Part shown: piece by piece, positions 1,732 to 60,074 of the stretch
Numbering within the stretch: position 1 is the stretch's first letter
Layout of the letters: each line of letters opens with the position of its first letter
NCBI GenBank assembly: GCA_016783745.1
Contig: JADHVZ010000007.1
Location: forward strand, 259 to 64,258
Length of the DNA: 64,000 bases
DNA from: Candidatus Omnitrophota bacterium
GTDB lineage: Bacteria > Omnitrophota > Gorgyraeia > JAHIPI01
Direction: 5' to 3'
The notes under the pieces: model-generated
Told to the model about the DNA's origin: nothing
Seen by the model: the letters and a program-made list of their open reading frames with translations, nothing else
Database searches by the model: none
Translations under genes and position numbers: made by a program

Positions 1732-3222
1732 ATGACACCCTCATCTAACTTAATTGCCAGGCACGCAGGTACGGTTTCCCATCTACTTCTCCCGATTTTA
1801 TTTATAATCATAATTGTTATGACGGTCCCATTTAATGATGTCCTCGAATACGATTGGGATGAAGGCGGCAATCTGATGAAGGCGTCACTTTACTCGAAGG
1901 GTTATTCGCTTTATGAAGAAATATGGAGCGATCAGCCTCCTCTGCTAACACTAATCTTATCGACTTGGTTCAATCTATTTGGGCCATCAGCATATAAGGG
2001 GCGCCTCTTAATCTTGATCCTATCGGCAATCCTTCTATGGGCCTTTCACCAGACTATTAAGAACCGATGGGGCAACCTCTGCGCCTTCATGGCAGTGTTA
2101 TTCCTGGTTTCTTCCGCTATGTATCTTCAGCTAAGTGTCTCGGTTATGATCGGGCTTCCCGCTCTCGCCTTTGCCATGCTTTCAATTTACTGCGTATCCG
2201 TTTACGGTAAATCACAATCAAACCGCGTATTATTTTTATCCGGTATCTTTATGGCCCTGTCTTTACAGACTAAATTTTTTACCATATTTCTCGTTCCGTT
2301 GATCGCGTTAGAGATCATTCGCATAAAATGGTCCGGCCTAAAAAGTGAGGGACAAAAAAAACATTTGGTATTTCCGGTTCTTGCGTGGCTTGGTATTGTT
2401 TTACTTGCATATTTTTGCATAGCTTTAGCATTTTTAAAGAATTTCGATCATCTGACTCAAGAATTGATCCAGCCTCATACCGCAGCAAAGACATTATTTG
2501 GAAAATTCAACGCTCTACCCGGAATGATATCTCAGGATTATGATATTGCTATCTTCGCTTTGATCGGCGCGGTATTGTTTGTCGCCCAGAAGAAATGGCA
2601 CGCCGTCTTTCCGTTTTTATGGGTAATTTCGGCTTCCGCCATATTACTTACACATAATCCTGTCTGGAATCATCATTATCTTCTTATCTCGATTCCCATG
2701 GCCTGGCTTGCCGGAATCAGTTTTGGCGAGTTATTTCGTATCGGCGTTCAACAGGGCTGGTCTTTGAAACATAAAATACGAGATATAATATATATGATCT
2801 ACCGCTTGTCAGCTATAGCTGTTATGATAGTTCCTATAGCAATATTGCCCGGCAAATTCAAAAAAGCGCATAAAGACCTTACAAATAAGCCGTCTATTCG
2901 GAATAACCAGGTTATCGAGTTACTATTGAAATATAAACAGGACACTCGCTGGGTGGTCACTGACAGTCAATTATTACCATTTCATGCCGGATTATTAGTG
3001 CCGCCGGAATTGGTTTCGACCACCTTAAAAAGGAAATTAACGGGGGATCTGACGCCGGGTTATTTTTTAGAAGTGCTGAAAAAGTATAAACCCGAACAGG
3101 TCCTTCTAAGAAGATACGGATACTATGACCGGAAAATTATGCCTTATATTGAAAAAAATTATTTTAAAGTTCATCATCATAAAGACACGAGACTCTACAT
3201 CCGGAAGGATATCAAAAAATAG
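1732..3222 (+). CDS. Polytopic membrane glycosyltransferase, ArnT/PMT-like (second, divergent copy)
   Basis: Multi-TM protein with an N-terminal loop YDWDEGGNLM analogous to the first gene. It is transcribed divergently from the 77..1492 gene. Confidence 0.5.
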   Translation: MTPSSNLIARHAGTVSHLLLPILFIIIIVMTVPFNDVLEYDWDEGGNLMKASLYSKGYSLYEEIWSDQPPLLTLILSTWFNLFGPSAYKGRLLILILSAILLWAFHQTIKNRWGNLCAFMAVLFLVSSAMYLQLSVSVMIGLPALAFAMLSIYCVSVYGKSQSNRVLFLSGIFMALSLQTKFFTIFLVPLIALEIIRIKWSGLKSEGQKKHLVFPVLAWLGIVLLAYFCIALAFLKNFDHLTQELIQPHTAAKTLFGKFNALPGMISQDYDIAIFALIGAVLFVAQKKWHAVFPFLWVISASAILLTHNPVWNHHYLLISIPMAWLAGISFGELFRIGVQQGWSLKHKIRDIIYMIYRLSAIAVMIVPIAILPGKFKKAHKDLTNKPSIRNNQVIELLLKYKQDTRWVVTDSQLLPFHAGLLVPPELVSTTLKRKLTGDLTPGYFLEVLKKYKPEQVLLRRYGYYDRKIMPYIEKNYFKVHHHKDTRLYIRKDIKK

Positions 3223-3319
3223 GGACAATGGACTTCCCCCAATAAAATGGATAGTTAATTAAACATTCTTTGTTTTTCAAATTCCTCAGGGCTTAAGTAC
3301 CCTAAGGACGAGTGAAGTC

Positions 3320-4700
3320 TTTTTCTGTTATAACAGGACTTTGTTAATTTTTCAGTTTTTTCTTAAACCGTTCTGATTTGATTTTATATAGCGAAGCAGC
3401 GATGTCCTTGTTCTTTGAAAGTAAAAACGCGGAATCAATGATAATGAGCGCCGAAACAGCCTGTTTGCATTGGCCGATTGTTTGAGGCGTTTCTTCCAGA
3501 ACCTTAGAGAGGTAACCGTTCTGCTTAATCAAGTAAGCAAGCGTCCATGTCAGGAATGACATAATCCAGTGTCTTTGGATTTGCTCCTGATGGCGAACCT
3601 GATATTGATCAAAACAGAAGGTATCTTTTAGCTCTCTAAAGGATTCTTCAATGCCCCAACGCAAGAGGTAAGTCATTATAACTGATCTGACAGACATTTT
3701 AAGATCGGTGGTTATGAGCACATGAACGGATTTATCGTCACTATCCGACCATTTGTTAAAGACAAAGATGACTTTAACAGGTGTTTTACAACCTTTGAGC
3801 TTGGAGTTAAAAGAATAAGTGAAAACGCTTTTGTCTTCACCTGTATTTTGAGGTATGCGGACAGCCTTTAATTTATGGGGATAAAATTGTCTAATCAAAG
3901 GTATGATTTCGTCGCAGCAGAGATATCTCCACTGCCTGGTCTGGGGATGGGTAAAGAAGACCGAACGGTTAATCTTAACTTCAGCCACCAAGGATATGTT
4001 CTTGGAGGAGACAAATTCTATTAAGTCTGTAGAGGTGTACCAGCTGTCAACGACTACAGAAGAGAAGGTAATATCTTTCTTTATGGCCTCATCGATAAGT
4101 TCTTTGGCAAGATCGAGTTTGCTTTTAAATTGTTTCGCTTCACAGGTATCAAGGGGCAGGTAAGGTGCTGAGCTTACAGGAAAGTGCTTGGTGTCTGAGA
4201 CGAAACAGCTGGCAACAGCAACATTACAATTTTCCTCTCTGCCTAAAGGAGCGCAGTATTGGAATTTGGCCCCTTCTGTATTTTTGGCATAAGGTTTTGG
4301 ACAGGCTGTATCGTCTATAGCGAGGACACCTTTGCTGCTGGATTTACTAGTTCTTTGCTTCTCTATGAGTTTTAAACGAATATCGTTTAGTTCATCGCAA
4401 TTCCAATTGGACTCCGAGAAGAAATATTGTAATTTTTGATAGGTGAGAGAGGTATTATTCGCGATAGCAGCCAGTGACATCCTTTTGTAATCTGCGAACA
4501 GCGCATAGATAAGCTCTCTGAATACCGACAATTGTGTCTTTGAAAAAACATGGTTGAAATGCACACTCTTCGCGCAATCGTCCGTTTTCACGCTTTAACG
4601 CTGCTATATCATCGTTCTTTCGACCACTTCCAGGGAATACAGTTTCGCCTTGCTCTTTGACCATATTTCTCCAAGTATGTAGGTCGTTTTCTTCGTAATT
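3320..4700 (-). mobile_element. IS701-family insertion sequence (boundaries approximate; terminal IRs not identified)
   Basis: Contains a single DDE transposase ORF. It sits directly next to the tRNA-Arg/palindrome locus. Confidence 0.4.
3344..4591 (-). CDS. IS701-family DDE transposase
   Basis: Motif LAIDDTACPKP...QYCAPLGREENCNVAV matches the IS701 signature (DDTgfpKkG...QYCGtlGKvaNCQVAV). The C-terminal WGIEESFRELK is the conserved E/K region of the IS4 superfamily. Confidence 0.8.
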   Translation of the reverse strand: MKTDDCAKSVHFNHVFSKTQLSVFRELIYALFADYKRMSLAAIANNTSLTYQKLQYFFSESNWNCDELNDIRLKLIEKQRTSKSSSKGVLAIDDTACPKPYAKNTEGAKFQYCAPLGREENCNVAVASCFVSDTKHFPVSSAPYLPLDTCEAKQFKSKLDLAKELIDEAIKKDITFSSVVVDSWYTSTDLIEFVSSKNISLVAEVKINRSVFFTHPQTRQWRYLCCDEIIPLIRQFYPHKLKAVRIPQNTGEDKSVFTYSFNSKLKGCKTPVKVIFVFNKWSDSDDKSVHVLITTDLKMSVRSVIMTYLLRWGIEESFRELKDTFCFDQYQVRHQEQIQRHWIMSFLTWTLAYLIKQNGYLSKVLEETPQTIGQCKQAVSALIIIDSAFLLSKNKDIAASLYKIKSERFKKKLKN

Positions 4701-4702
4701 AG

Positions 4703-4759
4703 TAATTAGGGACGGAGCCTAATTAGGGACGGAGCCTAATTAGGCTCCGTCCCTAATTA
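4703..4759. repeat. Perfect 40-bp palindrome TAATTAGGGACGGAGCCTAATTAGGCTCCGTCCCTAATTA plus one extra 17-bp left-arm copy (REP-like)
   Basis: Read directly from the sequence. The same palindrome recurs at 24150-24188. Here it lies immediately 3-prime of the tRNA-Arg on the minus strand, a terminator position. Confidence 0.9.
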
Positions 4760-4763
4760 AAAG

Positions 4764-4840
4764 TGGCGCGCCCGGGCCGATTCGAACGGCCAACCTGCTG
4801 ATTCGTAGTCAGTCACTCTATCCAATTGAGCTACGGGCGC
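4764..4840 (-). tRNA. tRNA-Arg (anticodon ACG)
   Basis: Reverse complement folds as a 77-nt cloverleaf: acceptor GCGCCCG/CGGGCGC, D-arm GCTC-AATTGGATA-GAGT, anticodon loop CTACGAA (U33, ACG, A37), T-arm GGCCG-TTCGAAT-CGGCC, discriminator G and an encoded CCA. There is one A·C mismatch at position 27-43. Confidence 0.85.
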
Positions 4841-5048
4841 AGATTATTCACTACGCTCGCCCTAGTGCCCCGAGGGGTACGGGCGCAGATTATTCACTAC
4901 GCTCGCCCTAGTGCCCCGAGGGGTACGGGCGCAGATTATTCACTACGCTCGCCCTAGTGCCCCGAGGGGTACGGGCGCTTTTTCTTCTCTGAAACTCCCA
5001 GTGCCCCGAGGGGTACGGGCGCAGATTATTCACTACGCTCGCCCTAGT
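4841..5048. repeat. Tandem array of a 46-bp unit AGATTATTCACTACGCTCGCCCTAGTGCCCCGAGGGGTACGGGCGC (3 perfect copies, 1 degenerate, 1 partial)
   Basis: Copies at 4841-4886, 4887-4932 and 4933-4978, a variant at 4979-5022 and a partial at 5023-5048. Each unit ends in TACGGGCGC, the reverse complement of the tRNA 5-prime nonamer GCGCCCGTA. Confidence 0.9.
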
Positions 5049-5360
5049 CTCTCCGAAGCTGAACGCGTAAGCAATTCAGCGAAGGAGGACGGGCGCGGAT
5101 TTGAATTCTTCCGGTATCAGGCCGCTTAATGAGCCGTGCGGCCTGAATGTATTATATTCCTTTCTCCAGTCTTCAATTGAGGTTTACTACATATTTTTTT
5201 AAGGATTGCTCATGATATTAGTGTTAATAATTATACCTGCTAATTATCAATTAATCAAGTTTAATGAAGTCGCTGATTTCTATTGAACAAAAAGTCCTTA
5301 AGTGGTAAAGTATTTATACTCATAAAATGTAAAAATCCACAAACAAGAAAGGAGTTTGTT

Positions 5361-19458: not shown

Positions 19459-20577
19459 TTATACTACGTTCGAGCCTTGTATAGAACTTTTTTTATAAAA
19501 TGGTTTCTCTACTACGGCTGCCTTTATCTCAGCGGGGCCGTGTTTTATCACGATGGCCTCGCCTGCTTTGGAAAATTTTACGTCGACATAACCCAAGCCT
19601 ATCCCGCAGGAGAGACTTGGTGAAAAGCTGCCGCTTGTCACTTTTCCTATCTCTTTACCGTCTTTTAAGATAGAATAATCATGCCGCGGCGCGCGTCGTG
19701 AATCCGTTTTAAAGGCTATAAGGATCTTTTGAACGCCTTCTTTCTTTTGCCTTACTAAAGCGTCTTTACCGATAAAATCTCTATCAAAATTTACAAATCT
19801 CTCCAGATTCGCCTCGAGCGGAGTCGTTTCTTCGGTGACATCCCGGCCGTATAGGCTGAAACCCATTTCAAGCCTCAGGGTATCGCGCGCGCCCAATCCG
19901 GCGGGCTTCAACCTCTTGTCCTTTAAGAGGTGGTTCCACAACTCGGCTGCTTTTCCGGAGCTTATATAAAACTCATAACCAAGTTCGCCGGTGTAGCCGG
20001 TACGGCTGACTATACTTTTCTCACCCAGGACATCAAAATACTCGAAAGTATAATATTTCAGCCGCCCTATGTCCGGGCTTATTAATCCCGTAACTATTTC
20101 CCGCGAAAGAGGCCCCTGCAGATCAAGCTTCGCGAGCTTTTCTGAGCGGTTTTCAAAGATAGCGCCTTTTTTAAGATTGGCCTTGATGTGCTCCGCGTCT
20201 TTATCTATAGTAGCGGAATTGACGACCACCATCCATTCATCACGGGAGAGCCTATAAACTATAAGGTCATCTTTTATGCCGCCTTCTTTGTTTAACATGG
20301 GGCCGTAACGGCATTTTCCGACTGATATATTGCCTATAGAGAAAGAAAATATATTTTCCAGTCCGGTATCCGCCGCATCGCCCTTAATATAGAATTCACC
20401 CATATGGCATATGTCAAATAGGGATGCTTGCGTCCTTGTGTGGCTGTGCTCGGCAATGATCCCCTCATACTGGATGGGCATATTCCATCCGGCAAAAGGG
20501 ACCATTTTGGCGCTTGATTTTATGTGCTCATTCAGGAGCGGTGTGGATTTTAGGTTTGGCTGCATATCATACTTCAT
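19459..20577 (-). CDS. gcvT: Aminomethyltransferase (glycine cleavage T protein)
   Basis: STPLLNEHIKSSAKMVPFAGWNMPIQY is the canonical GcvT N-terminus. Start is placed at the internal Met with an AGGCGGA RBS. The track ORF extends to 20598. Confidence 0.9.
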   Translation of the reverse strand: MKYDMQPNLKSTPLLNEHIKSSAKMVPFAGWNMPIQYEGIIAEHSHTRTQASLFDICHMGEFYIKGDAADTGLENIFSFSIGNISVGKCRYGPMLNKEGGIKDDLIVYRLSRDEWMVVVNSATIDKDAEHIKANLKKGAIFENRSEKLAKLDLQGPLSREIVTGLISPDIGRLKYYTFEYFDVLGEKSIVSRTGYTGELGYEFYISSGKAAELWNHLLKDKRLKPAGLGARDTLRLEMGFSLYGRDVTEETTPLEANLERFVNFDRDFIGKDALVRQKKEGVQKILIAFKTDSRRAPRHDYSILKDGKEIGKVTSGSFSPSLSCGIGLGYVDVKFSKAGEAIVIKHGPAEIKAAVVEKPFYKKSSIQGSNVV

Positions 20578-20879
20578 CTGGCATATCCGCCTTCGCACAT
20601 ATTCTGTAGTTCAGGGTAGAATGGCTACGGCGGATTAATGCCCCCGCCTATGGCGGGGTCATTAAAAAATGCCTGAGCGAAAACCCAGGCATACGATTTT
20701 CATCGCCGGCTCCTTGACATGCTCGCGATGACCCTGAGCGTAGTCGAAGGGCCTGTTTACTTCACCATGGTCAATTCCATGAAGCCAGAAGTATCATTTA
20801 TAGTTGTTTACTGCTTATAATTATAGTATTAATAAACACACTTGTAAAGCTAAAATTAATAGGGACAGATACCTATTTT

Positions 20880-24149: not shown

Positions 24150-24188
24150 ATAATTAGGGACGGAGCCTAATTAGGCTCCGTCCCTAAT
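24150..24188. repeat. Second copy of the 40-bp palindrome TAATTAGGGACGGAGCCTAATTAGGCTCCGTCCCTAATT (REP-like)
   Basis: Identical to 4720-4759 except for the last base. Located just 3-prime of the 1676-aa gene (minus strand) in a terminator position. Confidence 0.9.
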
Positions 24189-24190
24189 TC

Positions 24191-27100: not shown

Positions 27101-29221
27101 TACCCCGTCCCCGAATTGCCAGAGATGGCTCTCTATGACACCTGTTGATAAGTCTGTGAAGTGTACTGTGAGAGGCAGATCTCCTTCCGTGACATCAGCG
27201 GTAAAGTCCGCTATGCCGTGGTTCGCTTCTTCGTCTTCAGTAACGATTATAGTGATATCCTGAGAAACGCTCTCGCCATTCGTATCAGTTACGATGATCC
27301 TTACGGGAGAGTACGGGCTCTGTTCGGATGAGCCAAGAGGCAGTCTCCAGCTGAATCTGCCCATATATCTTGATCTGCCCTGCCGGGTAGTTATTACGGC
27401 ATTTACCATGTAACGGTCTTGGAATCTGTTTAACTCACTGGTATCAATAGAGAATTCGAGTGGCAGGCCTTCAGGATGCGAGGCTATTACTATTATCTCA
27501 AGAAGCTCTCTTTCTTCAACGGTCCATATTTCATCAATAGGGTCCATCTCAGGGCCGCCTGATACCCCTGTAAATAGTTCTCTTAAGCTATAATAGGCCT
27601 GGCGGGGCTCTACCTCATCGATACCGTCACCGGAGGTGTTCCAGGGATGCTCTAAAAAGTCTATTCCGTCATCGGCAATTCTCACAATGCCCCAGTATTC
27701 CTCACTGGCGCGTCCGTCAGGCAGATTACCGCCCCAGTCCGCTTCCGGTCCGGTCTCATGCTCCGATGGGCTGCCGGCAGCGTCCTTCCACCATTCATCA
27801 GAATATTCCATGATGGTCCCGCCGAGACAGATATCTGATGCCATGATCTGCCGGGTGTTCGCCACTACCCATGCGGCCTGAGCATCTTCATCCTCTTCTC
27901 CCGCCCCTGTGTTATAGGCATCAGCGCCATACTCCGTTATGACGAGCGGCTTATCGCTCCTTTGTCTGTAAAAGTCAAAAAAGCTTCCGGCCTGGCCAAA
28001 AAAGTCTATGTTATGAAAGTCCCTGTAATAGGCGTTAACCCCCCATACATCTATGAAGGGCAGCTGTTGATCGTGGCCTCCGAACTCGCTTTCACCGATA
28101 TACAAGATACCGCCGTTGATGATCATGACGGGATGATAAGAATCGCCTTCTATCTCATACGCTACCTCTGCGAGTCTATTGCAAAGGCTGTAAAATCCAT
28201 TGGCTATGTCGGTCTTACTCCTTCCGTAGGCCGCGGCTATCTCGTCGAATGACAGGCTAAGCTCATTGCCTAATGCCCACATAAGAACTGAATCTTCATT
28301 TCTATATGCGCTGACAAAATTCCTGAAATTCTGTTCTATCGAATTCCGTTGGCTGGCTTGGGTGAAATCGACCTTGTTAATCCAGAAGCCGGCTATGACC
28401 TTCAATCCATATTCCTCGGCCTTGGCCAGGATATTCCTTCCCGGCAATCCCCACGATCTTATAGTATTGAAGCCCGCATCGACCAGGAGAGGAAAGTCTC
28501 TGTCGTAAAATCTTGAGTCGTCGGAGGGAGGTGGCAGGCCGCCTATGGGCGTGGGCTGGTATCCTACGCCTTTAATGGTGAATGGCTCGCCGTTCACATA
28601 AAGAGTTTTGTCTGATTTTATGATGACTACCGGGCCTGTGCTTTCGGGCTTTTCGGGGGGCGGCGGCGGAGGTGCGACTTCGCCCATTTTAAAGCTGAGG
28701 TTATCAAGATAAATAGTGCCGCTACCTTGAAAGACTATGCTTACAGATCTCATCTTAGTCTTATCCATGCCTATGAATTCGTGCAAAGGGATATCTATTT
28801 CCTGCCATTCGGTCGTTGTATCTGAGAAGTTGACCGATGGATGAGGTGGTATACCAGATCCGGATTGAAGCTCCAATCTCATTGTTTCCCCGCCCCTATC
28901 GCCTCTTATTGAGAAAGATAAGAACGCGTAATCACTGATGTCCAGGTAAGTCCTGTCATCCCATACATTAGATGCGTACCAGTTATTATTTTGATATATA
29001 AATCTTCGGCTCTTTGACCCATCAAATGAGCCTGAGGCCGTCTCGGTCATGGAGGCACTGCCGCCCGTCCAGAATCTTAGCGTATTAGCGTTAGAATTAC
29101 TGTCATTATAATCATCGATCATAAGAGATGACTGTTGGGCATAGGTCACCGGACAGGCCGCTGCCATAATGGCAAAGGCTACGCCAAACATCAAAATTTT
29201 AGATTTTGAGTTATGCTTCAT
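24191..29221 (-). CDS. Giant secreted protein: clan GH-A (GH5-like) glycoside hydrolase domain, about 8 PKD domains and a C-terminal beta-helix
   Basis: Signal peptide MKHNSKSKILMFGVAFAIMAAA. GH-A motifs WALGNELS (acid/base NE) and VITEYGADA (nucleophile E). Repeated PKD signatures WxFGDGxxSxxxxPxHxYxxPGxYxVxLxxxG appear at least 8 times. The C-terminus has NNT/NNC beta-helix repeats. Confidence 0.8.
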   Translation of the reverse strand: MKHNSKSKILMFGVAFAIMAAACPVTYAQQSSLMIDDYNDSNSNANTLRFWTGGSASMTETASGSFDGSKSRRFIYQNNNWYASNVWDDRTYLDISDYAFLSFSIRGDRGGETMRLELQSGSGIPPHPSVNFSDTTTEWQEIDIPLHEFIGMDKTKMRSVSIVFQGSGTIYLDNLSFKMGEVAPPPPPPEKPESTGPVVIIKSDKTLYVNGEPFTIKGVGYQPTPIGGLPPPSDDSRFYDRDFPLLVDAGFNTIRSWGLPGRNILAKAEEYGLKVIAGFWINKVDFTQASQRNSIEQNFRNFVSAYRNEDSVLMWALGNELSLSFDEIAAAYGRSKTDIANGFYSLCNRLAEVAYEIEGDSYHPVMIINGGILYIGESEFGGHDQQLPFIDVWGVNAYYRDFHNIDFFGQAGSFFDFYRQRSDKPLVITEYGADAYNTGAGEEDEDAQAAWVVANTRQIMASDICLGGTIMEYSDEWWKDAAGSPSEHETGPEADWGGNLPDGRASEEYWGIVRIADDGIDFLEHPWNTSGDGIDEVEPRQAYYSLRELFTGVSGGPEMDPIDEIWTVEERELLEIIVIASHPEGLPLEFSIDTSELNRFQDRYMVNAVITTRQGRSRYMGRFSWRLPLGSSEQSPYSPVRIIVTDTNGESVSQDITIIVTEDEEANHGIADFTADVTEGDLPLTVHFTDLSTGVIESHLWQFGDGVTSTQEDPTHTYNDPGDRTVSLTITTDVNTDTETKYNYISILYPPPTADFTTSPDPPTDEAPLTIHFTSLAVGEVTNHIWSFGVDMQSISTEKDPSYTYNTPGTYNIIYAVRGPGGSDYVIKEDYVIVSEPQPDPSVTDFTATPTNGAAPLTVQFKDESTEDFTSRQWYFHDGVQVSRDTKKNPFYTYNTPGTYNVTLIASGPDVRDSMTKKRYITVTAPTPDPPVANFTTSPTSGDAPLTVTFTNTSTGTITSSAWNFGDQSGYGNILQSGYGETVTHTYNDPGTYTVSLTATGPGGSDEEVKTNLVTVSSPAPVAGFGVSARYPRTGLAPLTIQFSDLSTGNIIEWFWNFGDGGSSREQNPLYIYNNPGVYPVALAVRGPSRRWDDEMKLSYITVTAQIPDPPVANFTTSRTSGDAPLTVAFTDTSMGTISTLQWNFGDESGYDNIIQSGYGQMVSHTYNIAGTYNVALTATGPGGSNTETKAGLVTVSGSSLKAVFDIDPEFSSRAGPAPHTVQFLDNSEGDISYWAWSFGDGGIGSERNPTHEYRSPGIYTVRLIVIGRLGGSAEERKINFINVTYPLPTADFTASPTERAAPLTVYFVNTSTGTIYDWSWDFGDGNTGYGDRPSHTYTEAGDYDVTLTVTGPGGSDAVIKSDLISVADNTMDFEQLKARIDNAYDGEEIEITPSIYQFTSNLEIAQDITLISRDPDPENTVFMLGGYHILIKVPGHTPTDANPFGGLGDVAIEGITIRGYRGISVNGPIQSYAENLTLNNCRIIDNEGIRASAVYTLWQSTLRINNTLIADNYNLTVRLAQPASLYLAGPDSYCGAIFLDNYAAFYAIRSTIADNYCDLMTYSYQNGYGQSGYGKVNYGAVHRNNTGIAGRYGNDQLSVVNSIMWNNTNDTEDPMDISQSDNEALSITILNSDIQQYDVAGEGIFETISEDPYFRDPDDYDYTPQNSNCAGMGVY

Positions 29222-29256
29222 CGTATCCTCTTTTTTCGAAACTTATTAAAACAACT

Positions 29257-29286
29257 AAAAAAGAGGGCTTAAAAAAAAGCCCCCTC
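29257..29286 (-). terminator. Rho-independent terminator downstream of feoB
   Basis: On the minus strand, hairpin GAGGGGGCTT-TTTTTT-AAGCCCTC is followed by TTTTTT. Confidence 0.5.
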
Positions 29287-29417
29287 CTCCTATTGTCACT
29301 ATAAGTATAGCATATATATACAAGCAGTCAATAGCAAATATATAGCTTTTTTATACCCTAACTAAATAAGGAAAGTGACCCATTTTTAAGAATAAAATAG
29401 TTGGATTTAGCAGATTT

Positions 29418-39804: not shown

Positions 39805-39834
39805 TAGTATAGTGAACAATCGTTCACTTGTCAA
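39805..39834 (-). promoter_or_regulatory. lexA promoter with SOS (Cheo-type) box GTGAACGATTGTTCAC filling the -35/-10 spacer
   Basis: Minus-strand reading: TTGACA-AGTGAACGATTGTTCAC-TATACT-atatacc-ATG. The box is a perfect GAAC-N4-GTTC palindrome and the leader is only about 7 nt. Confidence 0.6.
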
Positions 39835-39836
39835 TA

Positions 39837-39955
39837 GAAAAAGGGGACAGACACTTTTATAGCGTTGTAAAGGGGACAGACACTTTTTTGAGGCTACATA
39901 CAGAGCTTCAAAAAAGTGTCTGTCCCCATAATCGTAAAAGTGTCTGTCCCCTTTT
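39837..39955 (-). terminator. Nested inverted repeats: four copies of GGGGACAGACACTTTT (two direct, two inverted) forming a long hairpin terminator
   Basis: Outer copies at 39841-39856 and 39936-39951 and inner copies at 39873-39888 and 39909-39924, with A/T runs on both sides. The element sits between the membrane-protein gene and the lexA promoter. Confidence 0.5.
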
Positions 39956-39959
39956 TCTA

Positions 39960-41771
39960 TTATTTTCTCTTAAAGAGGGCGATGCCGTACTGTTCCGTGG
40001 TAAAGGGGAAGGGGCCGAACTGCTTGTGCAGCCTGTAGTTTTTCACTATATATTTGAATATATCCTGCGCGTAGTCTTTGCCGAAAACGGCGTACCCGTA
40101 TTTATCCGTTCTTCTTTGCGTCAGGACTATATAGTCCACTTTCTTCTCATCCATCTCCCGGATGACATCGTCGGCAACACCCTGCTTGGCCAGGTCTATC
40201 GGATGATAACTGTAATAATAAAGCGGGTTCTCCCTGTCCAATAGGAAATTGACCACCACCCCTTCGGGAAAAACCACTAATGTTTCGTCTTTGCCTGTAG
40301 AGGTTTCCAAATATTTCATCAACTCCGCCAGCCTCTGCTCCCTGCTTGTGCCGAAGACGTTCATGCTGCCCCTGCCGGAAGTAACCCTTAACGTACGGTT
40401 CTTATAGCAAAAGTTCGAGATCTTACAATGACTCGCTATAAACAGGATGAATATAAACAAAAGACCGGCCCTGAAATATCCTCTGGCCAGATCCGACTTT
40501 AAGGGCGCGGCCGCGATCTTGAGGAAGAATACATAGTAAACGATTATGGCGGGCGTCAGGATATAGAAACCATAATGGCCCGCCCAGACATGCAAGAGCA
40601 TCCTTGTCATCAGGAAAAATGAGAAAAATGATATCGTCAGCATAAAGATGTTTTCAGTCCTGTTCTTTTGCCTGAGGGCGCCTATCGCGGAAATGATCAT
40701 CACCGCCAGGCATATCACGGGTAGCGACCTGTACTGCAGATCATAGGAAACGAAAAACACTCTGTAAAGAAAAAACGCCGCCGCAATAACGGCTAAGCCG
40801 ATGGCGGAGGATAGCGCTATCCTCGAGGCGGTTTTTTTCCGGCATAAAAGGCTTATGATGACCCCGCCCGCGGCGAAAAGCAGGCATAACGCCGAATAAT
40901 GCAGGATATTCTTAAGTATGATCAATATGTTCCCGGGCATATCATCCAGGCCGGAAAGCCAGCCCGCGAAGGCGGTCCTGACATCGGAACTTTTTACCCA
41001 TATATCGAACAGGTTGCTATTCTGCACCGCGCTGCTTCCCAGAAATGCGGCATAGACAAAAAAAGCGATGATCAACGGTATTATAACGCAAAGCGCCAGC
41101 CTGTTGCCCGATAGCCGCGCCGGATCACCGCCGCGGCGGAACGATATCGTATAAAAAATAACGCCCGCAAGCATGGACAGGACAAGCATTATCCCCACAT
41201 CCACCCTTGACAGGAGCGTAAGCAGGATGAACGACGAACTTAAATAGGCGTATTTGCTCGATCTTTTTTTCATCAGGATGTAGAAGAAATAAAGCGCCGC
41301 AAGAGAGAAAGCTATGGCATGGATCGATGAATAACTATAAGGCAGGAAGAAATTATAGTTACCCAGATACGTATAATGGCCGAACCCGAATACGATCAAA
41401 AAAGTAAAGACCGTGAATGTGGAAAATAATATACTGAGAAAGCGCCGCGATATCTTGTATATCAGCACGCTGACCGCGCAAAGGGTAATAAACCCGCTTA
41501 AGTAAAGGATATAAAGGTTTGCGCTGAAGATCTTAAATAGAGTCGCGTTAAAATACGGCGAAAAAGGCCCGTATATGTAAAAAACGTCCCTGTATAATAG
41601 CTTTCCGAGGCCGAGCTGCAATGGCACATACATCTCTCGGCCCACATCTACTATCAGATCACCCCACTTCAGCCATGTGAACTTCAGTAAAAAAAGCAGG
41701 CATACCGAGCTCAATAAAACAGAGATCCAGCCACTTTTCCAGTATTTTTTTAAAAGCAGTTTATATCTCAT
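39960..41771 (-). CDS. Large polytopic integral membrane protein, possibly a lipid-linked glycosyltransferase or polymerase
   Basis: 603 aa with at least 14 TM helices and a C-terminal soluble domain of about 150 aa. No confident family motif. Confidence 0.35.
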   Translation of the reverse strand: MRYKLLLKKYWKSGWISVLLSSVCLLFLLKFTWLKWGDLIVDVGREMYVPLQLGLGKLLYRDVFYIYGPFSPYFNATLFKIFSANLYILYLSGFITLCAVSVLIYKISRRFLSILFSTFTVFTFLIVFGFGHYTYLGNYNFFLPYSYSSIHAIAFSLAALYFFYILMKKRSSKYAYLSSSFILLTLLSRVDVGIMLVLSMLAGVIFYTISFRRGGDPARLSGNRLALCVIIPLIIAFFVYAAFLGSSAVQNSNLFDIWVKSSDVRTAFAGWLSGLDDMPGNILIILKNILHYSALCLLFAAGGVIISLLCRKKTASRIALSSAIGLAVIAAAFFLYRVFFVSYDLQYRSLPVICLAVMIISAIGALRQKNRTENIFMLTISFFSFFLMTRMLLHVWAGHYGFYILTPAIIVYYVFFLKIAAAPLKSDLARGYFRAGLLFIFILFIASHCKISNFCYKNRTLRVTSGRGSMNVFGTSREQRLAELMKYLETSTGKDETLVVFPEGVVVNFLLDRENPLYYYSYHPIDLAKQGVADDVIREMDEKKVDYIVLTQRRTDKYGYAVFGKDYAQDIFKYIVKNYRLHKQFGPFPFTTEQYGIALFKRK

Positions 41772-49456: not shown

Positions 49457-50203
49457 TTAGTACCGCCTGCCTATACCTACTACAACTGATGTACCTGCCG
49501 ATGCAAATGTCTCTCCTGTTACCGGATCCGCTATAGTAAGGTCTATCGAATAAGAGCCCGGTTCTGTATAAGCGTGAGAAACACTGCTGCTTCCGCTGCT
49601 TGAGCTGCCGTCGCCAAAATTCCAGTAGTATTCTCCGGGGCCGTCATATGATGCTGAAAGTAGTACTCCAAGAAAGCTCCTTCCTCCCACCATGACTGAG
49701 ATCTCCGGATCATCGTAGTTTTTCTGGCCGTATCCGCTCTCACCGTAACCGCTCTGGCCGTATCCGCTCTCGCCATAGCCGCCCTGACCAGGGCCTACTG
49801 GTTCATAAACTCTGATCTCTACAGATGCAGTGTCGCTTCCATCAGGCCCTATTATTTCAAGCGTCGCGGTGTAATCTCCGGGTTCATCATACGTATAGGA
49901 TGCGCTTGTGCCTTGTCCATCCCTGAAAACACCGTTTCCGTCCAGGTCCCACGCGCGGATAATTATATTGCCTGTTGAATGGTCTGAGAACGAGACTGAA
50001 AGAGGCGCGTATCCGTCAGCCGGAAAAGCGGAGATGGCGGCGCCAAAGGCCTCAAGCACAGTGATCGCTTGTGATGCGGTGTCGCTTCCGTCAGGACCTA
50101 TTATTTCAAGCGTTACAGTGTACTCACCGGCTGCCTCATAACTGCAGCTCGCGTCCTGGCCATGACTCGGCCGTCCGCCGTTTCCAAAATACCATGAGCT
50201 CAT
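49457..50203 (-). pseudogene. N-terminally truncated PKD-domain surface-protein gene fragment
   Basis: The ORF begins inside a PKD domain (SSWYFGNGG...), has no signal peptide, holds three PKD-like repeats plus GESGYGQSGYG spacers, and abuts the TIR element. Confidence 0.5.
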
Positions 50204-50230
50204 GCGGAGGCTCTTCGATTCGGCTTCTTC

Positions 50231-50383
50231 GTGTCTGGCGAATTTTGCCCTACAGAAATTTGCTTTTAGTAATTAACACCTTGTAAGCAAATTTCTATTA
50301 GGACTAGTCCCATAAAAATTGCCTGTGCATTTCTGAATGTCGAGGCAATTTTTGTGGGGGTGGGGGCAAAATTCGCCAGACAC
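50231..50383. repeat. MITE-like 153-bp element with perfect 20-bp terminal inverted repeats GTGTCTGGCGAATTTTGCCC and three internal palindromes
   Basis: Left TIR at 50231-50250 and right TIR at 50364-50383 (exact reverse complement). Internal inverted repeats AGAAATTTGCTT/AAGCAAATTTCT, GGACTAGTCC and AAAAATTGCCT/AGGCAATTTTT. Confidence 0.8.
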
Positions 50384-50830
50384 TTTGCGTCCTCTTCCTC
50401 GCAAAAATCCTTTATTTTTTAGGCGGCCAATTTATCCCGAGCAGAGTCGAGGGAAAAATTTTTAAAAGGTGTTTGATTTTTGCTCGGTCAAGTCCGCCCC
50501 CGAAGGTAGAACTTCATAGAAGTTTCTCCATGCGGGGGAAGCCTCATCTCATGGACGCGTTGCGCTGCAGCGGAGCACCTGCAGTCACAGTACCTAAAGG
50601 TAGGCTTCGCGCTACATAAATGTAGCGCTCCGCACTCGGGCGGCTTCAGCCCGGAGTTTATCCGCCGTAGCCTTGGCGAAGGCGGAGGCTTCCGTAGCGC
50701 CCTTTGTGCGCCTGCTTTTCTCAAGAGGAATGCGATTGACAAAAGAGTATTTTTATGATATATATGAAATCGACAAAAAGATATAGCCGTCCCGTGTTTA
50801 AAGGGGGAACCCGGACGTTAAAAAAGTAAA

Positions 50831-50864
50831 ACCTTCGCAGGATAAGAATTGCGAAGGTTTTTTA
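50831..50864 (+). terminator. Rho-independent terminator just upstream of radC
   Basis: ACCTTCGCA-ggataagaat-TGCGAAGGT followed by TTTTTT on the plus strand. Confidence 0.55.
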
Positions 50865-50880
50865 ATTGTATAGGAGAATT

Positions 50881-51597
50881 ATGATAACTAAAGAAAGAGA
50901 GAAAGCGTTCGGGCAGTCTATTAAATCATGGCCGATAAGTGAACGTCCGCGCGAATTACTTCTGGACAATGGACCTGATTGTGTTTCTGATGCCGGGTTA
51001 ATTGCAATATTGTTGCGATCCGGCACGAAAGGCAAAGATGCTGTGTCACTTGCCAGAGACTTGATTAAGCATTTTGGCAGCTTGAGAGGGTTGTTATCTG
51101 CCAGGAAGGCAGATTTAGAAAAGATAAAGGGACTAGGCCAGGCAAAGATTGCGCAACTTATGGCAGTGATAGAAATTGCCAAACGCCAACTTAAAGAGGA
51201 AATTATCGGTAAGCCCTACATTGAGAACGAAAAAGATGTCATGGATTATTTATCTCTGACTATGCGCGATTTAAAAGAAGAGTTTTTCAAAGTGTCGTAC
51301 CTAAATAAAGCAAATATCATCATCTCAGTAGAAGATTTAGCCAAAGGGACTATAGATCAATCCTCTGTCTATCCGCGAGAAATCATAAAGAGGGCCCTGG
51401 AAATAGGGTCTTGCGCTATTGTTTGCGTCCATAATCACCCGTCAGGAAACTTAGAGCCCAGCAAATTTGATATAGAGGTTACTAAGAGGCTCACTTCTGC
51501 CTGTCAGGCTGTTGATATTACCCCTTTAGATCATATAATAGTATCTCCCCCGCGGTCAGTTAAGCTTAAAAAGCAGGGGTGTATTTTCAAATATTGA
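50881..51597 (+). CDS. radC: RadC-like JAB/MPN domain protein
   Basis: N-terminal HhH region and C-terminal JAMM motif HNHPSG. Start is taken at ATG 50881, preceded by GGAG. Confidence 0.8.
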   Translation: MITKEREKAFGQSIKSWPISERPRELLLDNGPDCVSDAGLIAILLRSGTKGKDAVSLARDLIKHFGSLRGLLSARKADLEKIKGLGQAKIAQLMAVIEIAKRQLKEEIIGKPYIENEKDVMDYLSLTMRDLKEEFFKVSYLNKANIIISVEDLAKGTIDQSSVYPREIIKRALEIGSCAIVCVHNHPSGNLEPSKFDIEVTKRLTSACQAVDITPLDHIIVSPPRSVKLKKQGCIFKY

Positions 51598-56074: not shown

Positions 56075-58555
56075 ATGCCAAAGCCAAAATTCAACGAAGA
56101 CACATTGTCAGAACAACCTCTCATAAAACAGCTCCATGAGCGGATGGGCTATGAATATATTCATGGAGACAATCTTGACCCTGATTTGCATGATGAATGT
56201 GAGCGCAAGTCACGTAGAGAAGTTATTCTGGTTGAGCGGTTGAAAAAGAAGCTCAAAGAGATTAACGATAATTTAACAGATGAATCAGTCGACAAGGCAA
56301 TACGCAAGATTACTCATATCCAGGCGGAGACCGCGCTTGAGGCAAATAAGATATTCCACAGCCGTTTGATTTCCGGGGTTTCAGTTGAGCAGGATGTGGG
56401 CGCGAGGCGGCAGAATGTAACAGTAAATTTTATAGACTTTAAGGATATTGGTAAAAATGAGTTTTTGGCTGTCAATCAATTTTGGGTAAGGGGCCCTAAA
56501 GAAACCTGCAGGCCGGATGTAGTTATTTTTATAAACGGTGTGCCCATAGTTGTCATTGAGTGTAAAAGCCCCGTAGCTAAAGACACAGGTGTTATTGACG
56601 CACAGCGCCAGTTAAGGCGCTATCAAAGAGATATTCCAGACCTATTCAGGACAAATGAAATTCTCATAGGCTGTAATCTTTTTGGCGCAAAATACGGGAC
56701 CATAGAAGCCCCTGAAGACAAATACCACGAATGGAAGGAGCAGGGTAAAGAGAAATTACCAAATATGGCCGAGCACCCTTCGGTGAAAGAGATGCTCAGA
56801 TTAGGACTGATTGACAAAAAAGACATAGGCAAACATCCTCCGATGCAGGAAATCCTCGCAGCGGCGGTACTCAATAAGAAAAATTTGTGCGATATAGTGC
56901 GGAATTTTATTGTTTTTGATTATGACAAAGAAAGCCATAAAGTAATTAAAAAGATTTGCCGTTATCAGCAGTTTACAGCTGTTAACAAAATTGTAAGGCG
57001 TGTTGTAGAAGAACCTGATAAGAAAGGAATTATTTGGCATTGGCAGGGTTCCGGCAAGTCGCTTATTATGGTCTTTGCCGCCATTAAATTAAGGCGGGAA
57101 GAAGAAAAGCTTAAGAACCCAATTATTCTGATTGTTACAGATAGGACTAAGCTGGATAGGCAAATAACAGAAAACTTCCAGAATTGTAATTTTCCAAATC
57201 CCCAGCGAGCCAAAAACATGAAGGAGTTGTACGCCTTACTTAAAAGTGGCACAGGCAACACTATTATGACTACTGTTCAGAAATTCAGGGCTGTTTTGGA
57301 TAAACCGTTATCACAAGAAGAGAATATTATTGTTATGACTGATGAAGCTCACAGGACTCAATACGGCGCCTTTGCCCTTAACTTACGAAAGGCATTGCCG
57401 AATGCGGGCTTTTTCGCGTTTACCGGCACGCCGCTCAATAAGCGGGACAGGAATACATACCGCCATTTCAGCCCGTCGCATGAACGTTATTTAGATAGAT
57501 ATGATATGCGCCAATCTAAGGAAGATGGGGCAACGGTCGATGTCAAGTACGAAGGCCGTATGGCTAATCTGCAGGTTGTTTGCGCCTCAATTGATAAACT
57601 TTTAAAAGAACTGTTTCCCGAAAAGACAAGCAGAGAAATTGCCGAGATTAAAAGGCGGTATGCCCGCATTGACACGATTTTAGAAGCGCCTCGTAGAATA
57701 GAACGGGTCGCTATGGATATCGTAACTCACTATAATGCTAAAATTGCGCCTAACGGTTTTAAGGCAATGATTGTTACTAACAGCCGGAAAGCTGCGGACA
57801 AATATAAGAAAACGCTTGATAAGCTAATAGATCCCTCCTGGTCAACGATTGTTATGACAGTAGATAATGATAGCCCGCAAGAATGGAAAGATAACTATAA
57901 GAGGACGCCCACAGAAGAAGAACACCTTACAGGCAAGGAAGTGTTTCAGAATCCGTCAAACCCTTTAAAATTTCTTATAGTCTGCGATAAACTATTGACG
58001 GGTTTTGACGCGCCTATTATGCAGGTTATATATCTTGACCAAAGGATGAAAGAACATGGACTTTTGCAGGCAATTGCAAGGACAAACAGGCCATACCCCA
58101 GAAAGAATTTCGGCTTAGTTGTAGATTATGCCGGGGTCGGGAAAGAATTAACACAGGCTCTGGCGATATTTGACAGAGAGGATCTTGACGGGCTTTTTAG
58201 CGTCGATGATATAAAGAAAGAATTAGCATCTATGAACGATGCCCACAGAAAGATAATGTGTATATTTAAGAAAATCAAACGCGAAAACAAGCCTAGTGAA
58301 GTAATTCAGCAGCGGGAGACTAAAAAGCTAATAATAAATCTGCTTTTTAAAAACATCAAAATCTCCCCCAAACGTCTTTTTTCTTTTAATTTCTTCGCCC
58401 CCTTCAATTTTTTCTTTTTTGAGGAAAAACAAAAATGTCAAGTCGTGAATTTACAAAGGGTTATGAAAAATCGCCCCCGAAGGTCTTTATCCGGACTTTC
58501 GGATAGGGGATGGGTGAGTAAATTTGGGTTATTTCTTCCAGGATATCGGGGATAG
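56075..58555 (+). CDS. hsdR: Type I restriction enzyme R subunit, apparently 3-prime truncated
   Basis: HsdR_N nuclease-like N-terminus, helicase motif I (WHWQGSGKS), motif II (TDEAH) and motif VI (QAIARTNR). Only about 110 plausible residues follow motif VI, whereas about 300 are typical. The ORF tail (FFAPFNFFFF...) is non-protein-like and overlaps the convergent trkH. Confidence 0.75.
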   Translation: MPKPKFNEDTLSEQPLIKQLHERMGYEYIHGDNLDPDLHDECERKSRREVILVERLKKKLKEINDNLTDESVDKAIRKITHIQAETALEANKIFHSRLISGVSVEQDVGARRQNVTVNFIDFKDIGKNEFLAVNQFWVRGPKETCRPDVVIFINGVPIVVIECKSPVAKDTGVIDAQRQLRRYQRDIPDLFRTNEILIGCNLFGAKYGTIEAPEDKYHEWKEQGKEKLPNMAEHPSVKEMLRLGLIDKKDIGKHPPMQEILAAAVLNKKNLCDIVRNFIVFDYDKESHKVIKKICRYQQFTAVNKIVRRVVEEPDKKGIIWHWQGSGKSLIMVFAAIKLRREEEKLKNPIILIVTDRTKLDRQITENFQNCNFPNPQRAKNMKELYALLKSGTGNTIMTTVQKFRAVLDKPLSQEENIIVMTDEAHRTQYGAFALNLRKALPNAGFFAFTGTPLNKRDRNTYRHFSPSHERYLDRYDMRQSKEDGATVDVKYEGRMANLQVVCASIDKLLKELFPEKTSREIAEIKRRYARIDTILEAPRRIERVAMDIVTHYNAKIAPNGFKAMIVTNSRKAADKYKKTLDKLIDPSWSTIVMTVDNDSPQEWKDNYKRTPTEEEHLTGKEVFQNPSNPLKFLIVCDKLLTGFDAPIMQVIYLDQRMKEHGLLQAIARTNRPYPRKNFGLVVDYAGVGKELTQALAIFDREDLDGLFSVDDIKKELASMNDAHRKIMCIFKKIKRENKPSEVIQQRETKKLIINLLFKNIKISPKRLFSFNFFAPFNFFFFEEKQKCQVVNLQRVMKNRPRRSLSGLSDRGWVSKFGLFLPGYRG

Positions 58556-60074
58556 GGCTATGAGGACTGTGTAGATCTCTAGTCGGCCCAGCAACATGCA
58601 GAAGACCAGGACCCACTTTCCGCCGATCGGGATCCAGGCGTAATTCTCTGTCGCGCCGATACCTGATAGGCCCGGGCCTATGTTACACATGGTCGCCGCG
58701 ACAGTAGTAAAAGAGGTGGTAAAATCTCCTATAAAAAAGCTCATGATCAGCGAACAAACAGTAAATAGCGCCAGGAAAAGCACGACAAAACCTACGATGC
58801 TGGCTACCTGCCTGTCTTCTATCGTTTTCTTCGCTATCTTGACCGGCGCTATGATCCTGGGCTGAATAATCGTCCTTATCTCCCTGAAAGCGCTTTTAAT
58901 AGTGACCATGACCCTTACCATCTTTATACCGCCGCCGGTCGAGCCGGCACATCCTCCGAAAAACATAAGGACGACCAGCATATAACGGATAAAATTAGGC
59001 CATATATCAAAATCCGCAGTGCAGTATCCCGTAGTAGTAGTGATCGACACTACCTGGAATGCCGCGTGGCGCAGCCTGCCGCCAAAAGAGTCTATTTTTG
59101 TTCCTTCAATATTTATTTTTTCAGTAATAGCCTCTTCGGTCAAGGGCCGGCTGCGATAGCTTCTGCTTATCTGTTCCCGAGAATTAATGCCGCTTGATTG
59201 AAGGACAAATGTACTCAGTAAAACCGCTATTAAGATAACAGCCAGGTAGAAATGGAGTTCTTTATTGCTTCTGAGGAGGGTGAATTTTCTTCCGAATAAG
59301 ATCCTGTAGTGAATGACAAAATTCATGCCGGCGAAAAACATAAATATAATGATCACCCACTCTATAAAGGCGCTGTTATAGGCCCCTATAGACGCGTTCT
59401 TTGTGGAAAATCCGCCGGTAGCCATGGTGCCGAATGAATGACATATCGCGTCAAAAAACGTCATTCCGCCTATTTTGAGAAGGGCTGTTTCGATCAAAGT
59501 CAGCACAACATAAGTCCCCCCACAGGATCTTCGCGGTCTGCGCAAGCCGGGGTTTAAGCCGTTCAGCGGCAGGCCCCGGGACTTCACCCCGAAACATCTG
59601 GTATCCGGCGATGCCAAAAACCGGTAATATAGCAAGGGCAAGGGTTATAATACCCATCCCGCCCAGCCAGTGCGTTAAGCTCCGCCAGAAAAGTATACCC
59701 TGCGGCAATCCCTCGATCTCGGTCATGATGGTGGCGCCGGTAGTGGTAAAACCGCTCATGATCTCGAAGTAGGCGTCAGTAAAGGCGTGTGTAAAAACAC
59801 TCAATGTGAGGCCTCCGGCCTGAGAAAGAAAATAGGCCGTAAGAGGTATGCAACCGAAAAGCGTTAACAAAAACCAGCCAAATGTCACTATGGCAAACCC
59901 TTCTCTTATGCCGGTTCCCGTCAACTCGTTTTTTCCGAAGAGTTTAAGGATGTTTCCGAATATAAATGAAGCTGCTATAGCGATAATAAAACCGAAAAGC
60001 CTGTGATCAAAAATAACTGCGGGAAAATTTCTTGAGGGGATCTCGAAGAACGCTATTAATGCCGGCACGATCAA
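58529..60074 (-). pseudogene. trkH: TrkH/KtrB-family K+ uptake protein, split by a frameshift
   Basis: ORF 59451..60074 encodes the N-terminal half up to ...[12 protein letters not shown] 58529..59641 resumes in another frame at [33 protein letters not shown]. The roughly 190-nt overlap contains the frameshift. Confidence 0.7.

Follow-up and report, generated by a model that had tools for sequence, protein, structure and literature searches.

What kind of element fills the gap of 677 nt that separates a minus-strand PKD-domain gene (49457-50203) from radC on the plus strand (ATG at 50881) in this Omnitrophota genome? Throughout, the window is the whole 64-kb stretch of DNA that was analyzed, and coordinates without a contig name refer to it. 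On one side of the gap, the operon headed by the PKD gene continues with genes for an MA-type peptidase, a DUF1570 protein, GlnS, and AsmA, and on the other side a type I restriction-modification (R-M) operon lies downstream of radC. An earlier note on this DNA had proposed a single structured non-coding RNA (ncRNA) of ~450 nt (50390-50864) that ends in an intrinsic terminator. We found two independent features in the flagged stretch, a mosaic of hairpin modules at 50217-50735 and the promoter, leader, and terminator of radC at 50736-50866 (Table 1). According to our preferred joint reading, which we hold with about even confidence, the former would be a copy of a mosaic hairpin repeat that serves as RNA punctuation, and the latter a terminator-gated radC leader.

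Base composition and folding

The GC content was 0.59 at 50500-50699 compared to 0.449 across the whole window, and the 260-nt segment starting at 50441 ranked at the 98.6th GC percentile. The region is thus enriched in GC as noted before, but a level "far above background" is somewhat overstated, given that the PKD gene next door reaches 0.55-0.575. Compared to shuffled sequences, the GC-rich part folded with only a moderate excess of stability (z = -2.5 on the plus and -3.5 on the minus strand), which amounted to ~-2.3 once regressed on GC. The strongest structure is the near-perfect three-way junction (z = -12.3), which lies just left of the coordinates flagged originally. Homology extends to 50217, so that the GC-rich part reaches ~170 nt further to the left than the start at ~50390 assumed before.

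The individual hairpins listed in the earlier note are all present, namely GCGCTACAT-AA-ATGTAGCGC (50609-50628), TACCT-AA-AGGTA (50591-50602), CGGGC-GGCTTCA-GCCCG (50638-50654), and TCCGCC...GGCGGA (50661-50686). The same is true for the terminator on the plus strand, which has a stem of 13 pairs (50828-50861) followed by a T-run.

Table 1 Features of the mosaic and of the radC upstream region (window coordinates).
Feature	Position	Strand	Description and basis
Whole mosaic, non-coding element	50217..50735	+	colinear with L010 (reverse complement), ~70% identity overall
Three-way junction	50231..50383		20-bp perfect closing stem 50231-50250 / 50364-50383
Hairpins inside three-way junction	50254-50296 and 50309-50358		enclosed by the 20-bp stem
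Block A	50384..50414	+	conserved linker TTTGCGTCCTCTTCCTCGCAAAAATCCTTTA; alignment with L010
Block B hairpin	50437..50487	+	10-bp stem CCGAGCAGAG / (T)TTTTGCTCGG, AT-rich loop
Hairpin H1	50497..50538	+	CCCCCG...CGGGGG, inner GAACTTC/GAAGTT stem
Variable region	50539..50579	+	CTGCAG...CTGCAG hairpin, not conserved in L010
Core four-stem unit	50580..50716	+	alignments and RNAalifold consensus
Core P1	50581-50589 / 50705-50715		GCAG.CACA / TGTG..CTGC; closes three hairpins
Core P2	50591-50602		TACC-TAAA-GGTA
Core P3	50609-50628		GCGCTACA-TAAA-TGTAGCGC
Core P4	50638-50644 / 50694-50702		GGGCGGC...GCNGCGCCC, tip length variable
Conserved 3' tail of core	50717..50735	+	TTTCTCAAGAGGAATGCGA; consensus CYTAAGAGRAA
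radC promoter	50736..50764	+	TTGACA, 17 nt, TATATA, upstream TG; sequence scan
radC leader hairpin	50788..50817	+	CGTCC...GGACG, loop GTGTTTAAAGGGGGAACCC
radC intrinsic terminator	50828..50866	+	12-13 bp stem and T-run; relatives' sequence TTAAAAAAGTAAAACCTTCGC...GCGAAGGTTTTT

A chain of hairpin modules around a four-stem core

The mosaic (~520 nt) takes up nearly all of the space from the PKD start (50203, minus strand) to the -35 box of radC. Its colinearity with contig L010 spans GATTCGGCTT to GAGGAAT, and both copies have the same order of parts: large hairpin, block A, AT-rich spacer, block B, H1, variable region, core, and tail. The 20-bp stem of the three-way junction is kept in L010 with three compensatory double changes. 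Inside the large hairpin, L010 has an 8-nt loop, whereas the window has a 113-nt insert with two further perfect hairpins that is found in the window only among the copies; in L015 the large hairpin is truncated to its 5' arm. At the position of H1, L010 also has a hairpin, but with a different stem (CCCAGCCGCC/GGCGGCTGGG).

A consensus of the core was obtained with RNAalifold from four copies, all of which keep the multi-stem architecture closed by P1. P2 and P3 together represent a 22-nt tandem duplication (Tandem Repeats Finder) and differ from each other by a compensatory C-G to A-T change. Between copies of the core we observed zero compensatory double changes, because the copies are too similar. 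The unpaired linkers are as invariant as the stems, which points to a sequence-specific partner rather than to generic hairpins. An insert in the tip of P4 (~50651-50690) is specific to the window. The long-range pairing of GCGCTAC (50609) with GTAGCGC (50696) proposed earlier did not hold beyond the window: both segments exist, but the homologues read GCAGCGC or GCTGCGC at the second one, which pairs with GGGCGGC instead. A canonical intrinsic terminator within or just after the core was found in none of the copies.

Copies of the core in unrelated contexts

A scan of 241 million metagenome records with exact 20-mers yielded two true copies (L010 and L012), and a scan of 185,579 GTDB genomes with exact 21-mers yielded three (L015, L016, and L017), all in Omnitrophota-type MAGs; exact words of 20-21 nt miss diverged copies, and MAGs lose repeats. 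Other 20-mer matches (L009, L011, L013, and L014) turned out to be unrelated hairpins or terminators matching by chance. A stretch of ~60 nt (50586-50646, CACAGTACCTAAAGGTAGGCTTCGCGCTACATAAATGTAGCGCTYCGCACTCGGGCGGCTT) shares 94-98% identity across the window, L010, L012, L015, and L017, while the mosaic flanks of this near-invariant stretch diverge to 60-70% identity. BLAST E-values of the core against the latter four contigs ranged from 1e-23 to 1e-38. It is this conservation that speaks most strongly against chance, because the core matches four unrelated contigs. A covariance model (R1) built from four core copies scored 62 bits in L017, from which P1 is absent, as against 127-147 bits in the other full copies (window, L010, L012, and L015). 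L016 carries a deleted variant of the core without the P3 hairpin. The R1 search detected no further core copy in 177 kb of related Omnitrophota loci. There is no second core copy in the 64-kb window, neither inverted nor direct, and we saw one core per contig throughout.

The copies have different neighbours: two HTH (excisionase-like) genes in L010, ubiA upstream and a GIY-YIG gene downstream in L012, dtxR-feoB-oprB in L015, and a P-type ATPase gene in L017. The genes downstream of the core are thus unrelated among the copies (radC, HTH, dtxR, GIY-YIG). The modules around the core also change places. In L012, block B is found in reverse orientation on the downstream side of the core, and in L015 it is joined to the 5' arm of the large hairpin; the module CACTGCATCGCTCGCT... 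precedes the core in L010 and follows it in L012, where it is inverted; and an extra hairpin inside the L010 core reappears at 5051-5089 of the window. Modules that are shuffled, inverted, and deleted in this way look like interspersed mosaic repeats, unlike a single fixed RNA gene. The idea of one fixed ~450-nt RNA is at odds with this pattern, as its GC-rich part consists of modules that are separate, inverted, or deleted in other genomes.

We also noticed that in L012 (700-1700) the GIY-YIG gene, of 90 aa, lies between hairpin modules rich in GC, and a TTGACA-type promoter comes after each of them. L010 shares some of the modules around this gene, several in number.

We read the mosaic as a new family of dispersed intergenic repeats similar to BIME/REP and BOX elements, of which one core per contig was seen. 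The main weakness of the dispersed-repeat reading lies in this single core per contig and in the small number of exact-word matches. The element would be a non-autonomous chain of hairpin modules around the near-invariant core, and it may spread or rearrange via recombination between its modules.

Orientation and strand-specific pairing

When block B was compared to L010, ten of ten pairs were kept on the plus strand, whereas a consensus of the minus strand retained only six. The three one-sided changes in block B are purine or pyrimidine transitions opposite U or G. Likewise, all three one-sided stem changes in the core result in G-U pairs on the plus strand. In each of the five full copies, the core and its downstream gene are co-oriented, as are the core and the upstream gene in three of four, and in L012 and L017 the core begins 10-45 nt past the upstream stop codon. 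Four copies (window, L012, L015, and L017) have a sigma-70-like promoter downstream of the core on the same strand. The window copy has no plus-strand gene upstream and only a weak candidate promoter (50273-50301).

Wobble pairing confined to the plus strand, together with the co-orientation with genes, favours a plus-strand RNA transcribed from the upstream unit, whereas the lack of a canonical terminator in or after the core, and of an upstream plus-strand gene at the window copy, speaks against it. As far as the sequence can tell, this suggests that the mosaic works as RNA. On the plus strand it would form a stable hairpin cluster that punctuates transcription units, and we infer a role as insulator, 3'-end protector, or processing site, as in REP/BIME, BOX, and ERIC.

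An alternative that we consider unlikely is that the core by itself (four stems in ~105-140 nt) constitutes a separate gene for a new type of structured ncRNA, which has been transferred horizontally between Omnitrophota genomes, has incidental flanks, and interacts with a sequence-specific partner, be it a protein or a nucleic acid. Such a gene would account well for a 60-nt stretch that is near-invariant including its unpaired linkers amid much more variable flanks, and for the P1-closed architecture in four copies. The wobble-only changes on the plus strand, the consistent orientation, the single copy per contig, and the absence of an Rfam family are in line with it as well. It fits less well with the observation that neither a promoter nor a terminator is conserved around the core, and that the core starts so close behind the upstream stop codon in L012 and L017. 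The loss of P1 in L017 and of P3 in L016, the rarity of the core in large databases, and the lack of compensatory changes likewise speak against such a gene.

A break in gene order and in assemblies

The two sides of the gap have relatives that are not joined by a mosaic. Two left-hand relatives (L018 and L019; MA-type peptidase with 69-70% identity) have other genes upstream, and no mosaic modules were detected in either of them. On the right-hand side, L024, L026, and L029 carry radC (76-77% identity) together with the same R-M operon, and the GC-rich mosaic upstream of radC is absent from all three. In L024, only 154 nt lie between a PLD-like gene and radC (3326-4846), while the corresponding place in L026 is taken up by two genes for tyrosine integrases (2561-4778). 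Since L024 and L026 differ there, the left border of the radC/R-M block represents a rearrangement hot spot. The mosaic would have been gained in this lineage at the gene-order break between the PKD/GlnS operon and the radC and R-M operon.

Several public assemblies yielded contigs whose flanking proteins are exactly those of the window. The mosaic interrupts four independent ones: three Logan contigs end at 50409 and one ENA contig ends at 50428. On the radC side, the contigs start at 50810 or 50812. The gap is bridged by a single ENA contig, which shows no difference from the window in the stretches that were compared. That the same break points recur in independent samples points to branching of the assembly graph, as expected for repeated or polymorphic sequence, and not a random loss of coverage. 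The break at 50409 coincides with the end of the conserved block A. An invertible segment was rejected as the cause of the breaks, as there are no inverted repeats at 50409 or 50810.

Additional modules were observed at the ends of gene blocks. The radC/type I R-M block has at its far end a small hairpin module (GGTCTTTATCCGGACTTTCGG, 58475-58502) with 93% identity to L012 968-995, and is therefore bracketed by modules that accompany the core in other contigs. The 5.1-kb contig L015 ends in 26-nt inverted copies of one module (4-29 and 5136-5161); the contig is either a cassette with inverted repeats on its flanks or the product of an assembly that entered the same repeat from both sides.

The position at a gene-order break next to the radC/R-M block, with tyrosine integrases at the same place in L026, raises the alternative that the mosaic acts as double-stranded DNA, i.e. 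as a binding or recombination site (res/hix-like, att-like, or an operator array) at cassette junctions. The proposal rests on the AA-centred palindromes TACCT-AA-AGGTA and GCGCTACAT-AA-ATGTAGCGC, which are 22 bp apart, a spacing of about two helical turns. It gains further from another member of this module family at the opposite end of the block, from the bracketing of the L015 cassette by inverted module copies, and from neighbouring genes that are typical accessory genes. Nevertheless, we regard this alternative as rather improbable: no recombinase gene adjoins the element in the window or any of the other copies, the window has no second core copy in either orientation, and the strand-asymmetric changes, confined to G-U, as well as the orientation bias would be unexpected for a DNA site. 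The reading of the mosaic as a repeat that acts at the RNA level accommodates these last two observations.

A probable terminator-gated leader upstream of radC

The mosaic ends at 50735, immediately before the -35 box of a strong radC promoter, which is conserved in the relatives with TTGACA-17-TACAAT in L024, TTGACA-17-TATAGT in L026, and the same arrangement in L029. These three relatives keep the order of promoter, hairpin, terminator, and ribosome-binding site before radC. The stem of the leader hairpin covaries (GTCC/GGAC compared to GTGG/CCAC) around a conserved loop (GAGTTYGAAGGGGGAA), and the terminator stem is kept, with a compensatory G-C to A-U change in L026. The RNAalifold consensus of the leader has 20 pairs, of which five show compensatory double changes among four sequences. 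The covariation for which the earlier note suggested a test is present among the four radC leaders and nil in the core. In the minimum-free-energy fold, the leader forms the two hairpins only.

The terminator belongs to the radC leader, because it is kept in relatives that lack the GC-rich part. It ends 5 nt upstream of the ribosome-binding site (AGGAG, 50872-50876), which implies that expression of the radC/R-M operon would depend on read-through. In the proposed mechanism, transcription would start at the sigma-70-type promoter, pass through a leader of ~95 nt with the covarying hairpin, and reach the terminator; we infer that whatever controls read-through would determine expression of the operon. 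Judged by sequence, 50765-50866 looks like an attenuator-type leader of radC.

In attenuator leaders, a promoter is followed by a leader hairpin, an intrinsic terminator, and a ribosome-binding site, and expression occurs by read-through. The radC leader shares this order of elements; it differs from the classical examples in that it is assigned without a leader peptide, an antiterminator, a ligand, or a protein partner. A structured RNA upstream of radC has been described before: in Proteobacteria, the radC RNA motif (RF01754) lies on the 5' side of genes for RadC, integrases, and DNA methylases (Weinberg et al. 2010, PMC2864571). The Omnitrophota leader is similar in being conserved, structured, and located 5' of radC near DNA-modification genes. 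It differs with respect to the phylum and in that its terminator abuts the ribosome-binding site, and RF01754 had no match in cmscan at E<=10 over 50150-50950.

These data leave little room for the original proposal of one ~450-nt structured ncRNA, or a riboswitch-like radC leader, running from 50390 to 50864. The terminator is indeed real and on the plus strand, any plus-strand transcript of the mosaic would run into it, and the plus-strand pairing signal fits. However, a strong promoter (50736-50764) that is conserved in the relatives intervenes between the GC-rich part and the terminator, the relatives keep promoter, leader, and terminator without the GC-rich part, the core copies elsewhere precede unrelated genes, and the homology extends left to 50217. 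We consider a single RNA of this kind to be very improbable. A riboswitch or other 5' cis-regulatory leader within the GC-rich part was likewise rejected, since the radC promoter is downstream of it and unrelated genes follow the copies.

Searches of sequence and literature collections

At the Rfam 15 gathering score, a tRNA (4767-4840) was the sole match in the whole window. The comparison with Rfam proposed in the earlier note was extended to E<=10 over 50150-50950, and no match fell within 50390-50735; L010 and L012 had none at E<=1. These searches cover RNase P, tmRNA, SRP, 6S, group I/II introns, and ribozymes, none of which matched. Weak matches at permissive thresholds (GibS, His_leader, and others) were discarded, as they reflect the terminator only. 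Overall, the view of a structured region that is conserved in other contigs and has no Rfam match was borne out for the GC-rich part.

The 84-aa open reading frame on the minus strand (50488-50742) exists, and the region is non-coding as stated before, with no Pfam family matched by peptides from six frames. A chimeric peptide that joins the core's three open frames had no homologue among 5.8 billion proteins, a minus-strand frame of 109 codons gave one marginal match and nothing usable among 1.84 billion representatives, and an exact look-up of the 84-aa and a 48-aa reading frame returned no record. That the region is a decayed protein-coding gene, to which its PKD-like GC content and open frames of 82-109 codons crossing it might point, is hardly credible in view of these protein searches, of conservation at the nucleotide level, of indels of any length, and of modules in both orientations.

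Comparison to plasmid and phage collections by blastn revealed nothing similar. A plasmid or phage origin was also dismissed after k-mer scans of viral contigs, which gave nothing or two chance matches inside a coding region. A genome scan with the 292-aa neighbour protein found no relative, and full-text searches of the literature for non-coding DNA, repeats, or structured RNAs of Omnitrophota retrieved nothing specific.

Relation to known repeat families and significance

REP sequences and BIMEs of Enterobacteria are extragenic, non-coding hairpin modules that occur in variable combinations and orientations, are oriented relative to genes, and are part of the mRNAs of their neighbours. REP sequences are species-specific, and a high copy number is the hallmark of elements of this type. 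The mosaic resembles them in being extragenic, in consisting of hairpin modules in variable order and orientation, in its orientation relative to neighbouring genes, and in having no coding capacity. It differs in its longer modules, in the phylum, and in the near-invariance of its 60-nt core across different MAGs. As for copy number, the 64 kb contain one core and two related modules (5051-5089 and 58475-58502), and the assembly breaks suggest repetition. Furthermore, the window ORFs that were scanned included no RAYT (REP-associated tyrosine transposase); the sole transposase among them was of the DDE type (3344-4591).

BOX, RUP, ERIC, and Correia-type repeats or MITEs are modular (boxA-B-C), 100-500 nt in length, and intergenic near promoters, and they form stable RNA folds. 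The mosaic is also modular, intergenic near promoters, and stably folded, and it breaks short-read assemblies. In contrast to MITEs, it has neither terminal inverted repeats (at 50217 and 50735) nor a target-site duplication, no transposase is associated with it, and its boundaries of homology vary by copy.

A bolder view, which is possible but on the doubtful side, is that the core belongs to an undescribed, Omnitrophota-specific class of structured RNA that has a sequence-specific partner (a protein or a nucleic acid), moves between genomes together with the modules, and seeds junctions of accessory gene cassettes. If true, the core would be a functional mobile RNA element and not passive repeat DNA, with the radC/R-M block as an example of a junction.

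In the uncultured Omnitrophota, a mosaic family with an unusually invariant core that marks variable genome junctions helps to judge the fragmentation of MAGs and to trace the exchange of gene cassettes. The conserved, apparently terminator-gated leader before radC and a type I R-M operon recalls the radC motif of Proteobacteria, itself unexplained, and may hint at the way in which these DNA-processing genes are turned on. Neither the mosaic nor the radC leader overturns current ideas.

Other repeats and features in the window

The window holds other, unrelated palindromic intergenic repeats, which indicates that this genome tolerates repeat elements. Adjoining the minus-strand tRNA gene (4767-4840), a tandem array (4832-5048) comprises 4.8 copies of a 46-nt unit; in every copy the initial bases of the tRNA (GGGCGC...) recur together with a GTGCCCCGAGGGGTAC hairpin, and the hairpin module at 5051-5089 comes after the array. 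A 39-nt palindrome (TAATTAGGGACGGAGCCTAATTAGGCTCCGTCCCTAATTA) is identical at two distant intergenic sites (4703-4759 and 24151-24189), one of which adjoins the DDE_5/IS4-like transposase ORF (3344-4591, minus strand).

The trkH gene (58529-60074, minus strand) falls into two ORFs that overlap (58529-59641 and 59451-60074), each with a match to Pfam TrkH; this reflects either a frameshift or pseudogene or a sequencing error. With respect to folding, the intergenic regions 20411-20800, 29056-29380, and 23986-24300 fold better than their GC content predicts (~-3 sd). The most over-folded site of the window is a 129-nt imperfect palindrome (39833-39961; 82% self-complementary, ~-7.6 sd after correction for GC), which is located between an operon encoding a LexA-like S24 peptidase and a Y-family polymerase and a gene of 603 aa.
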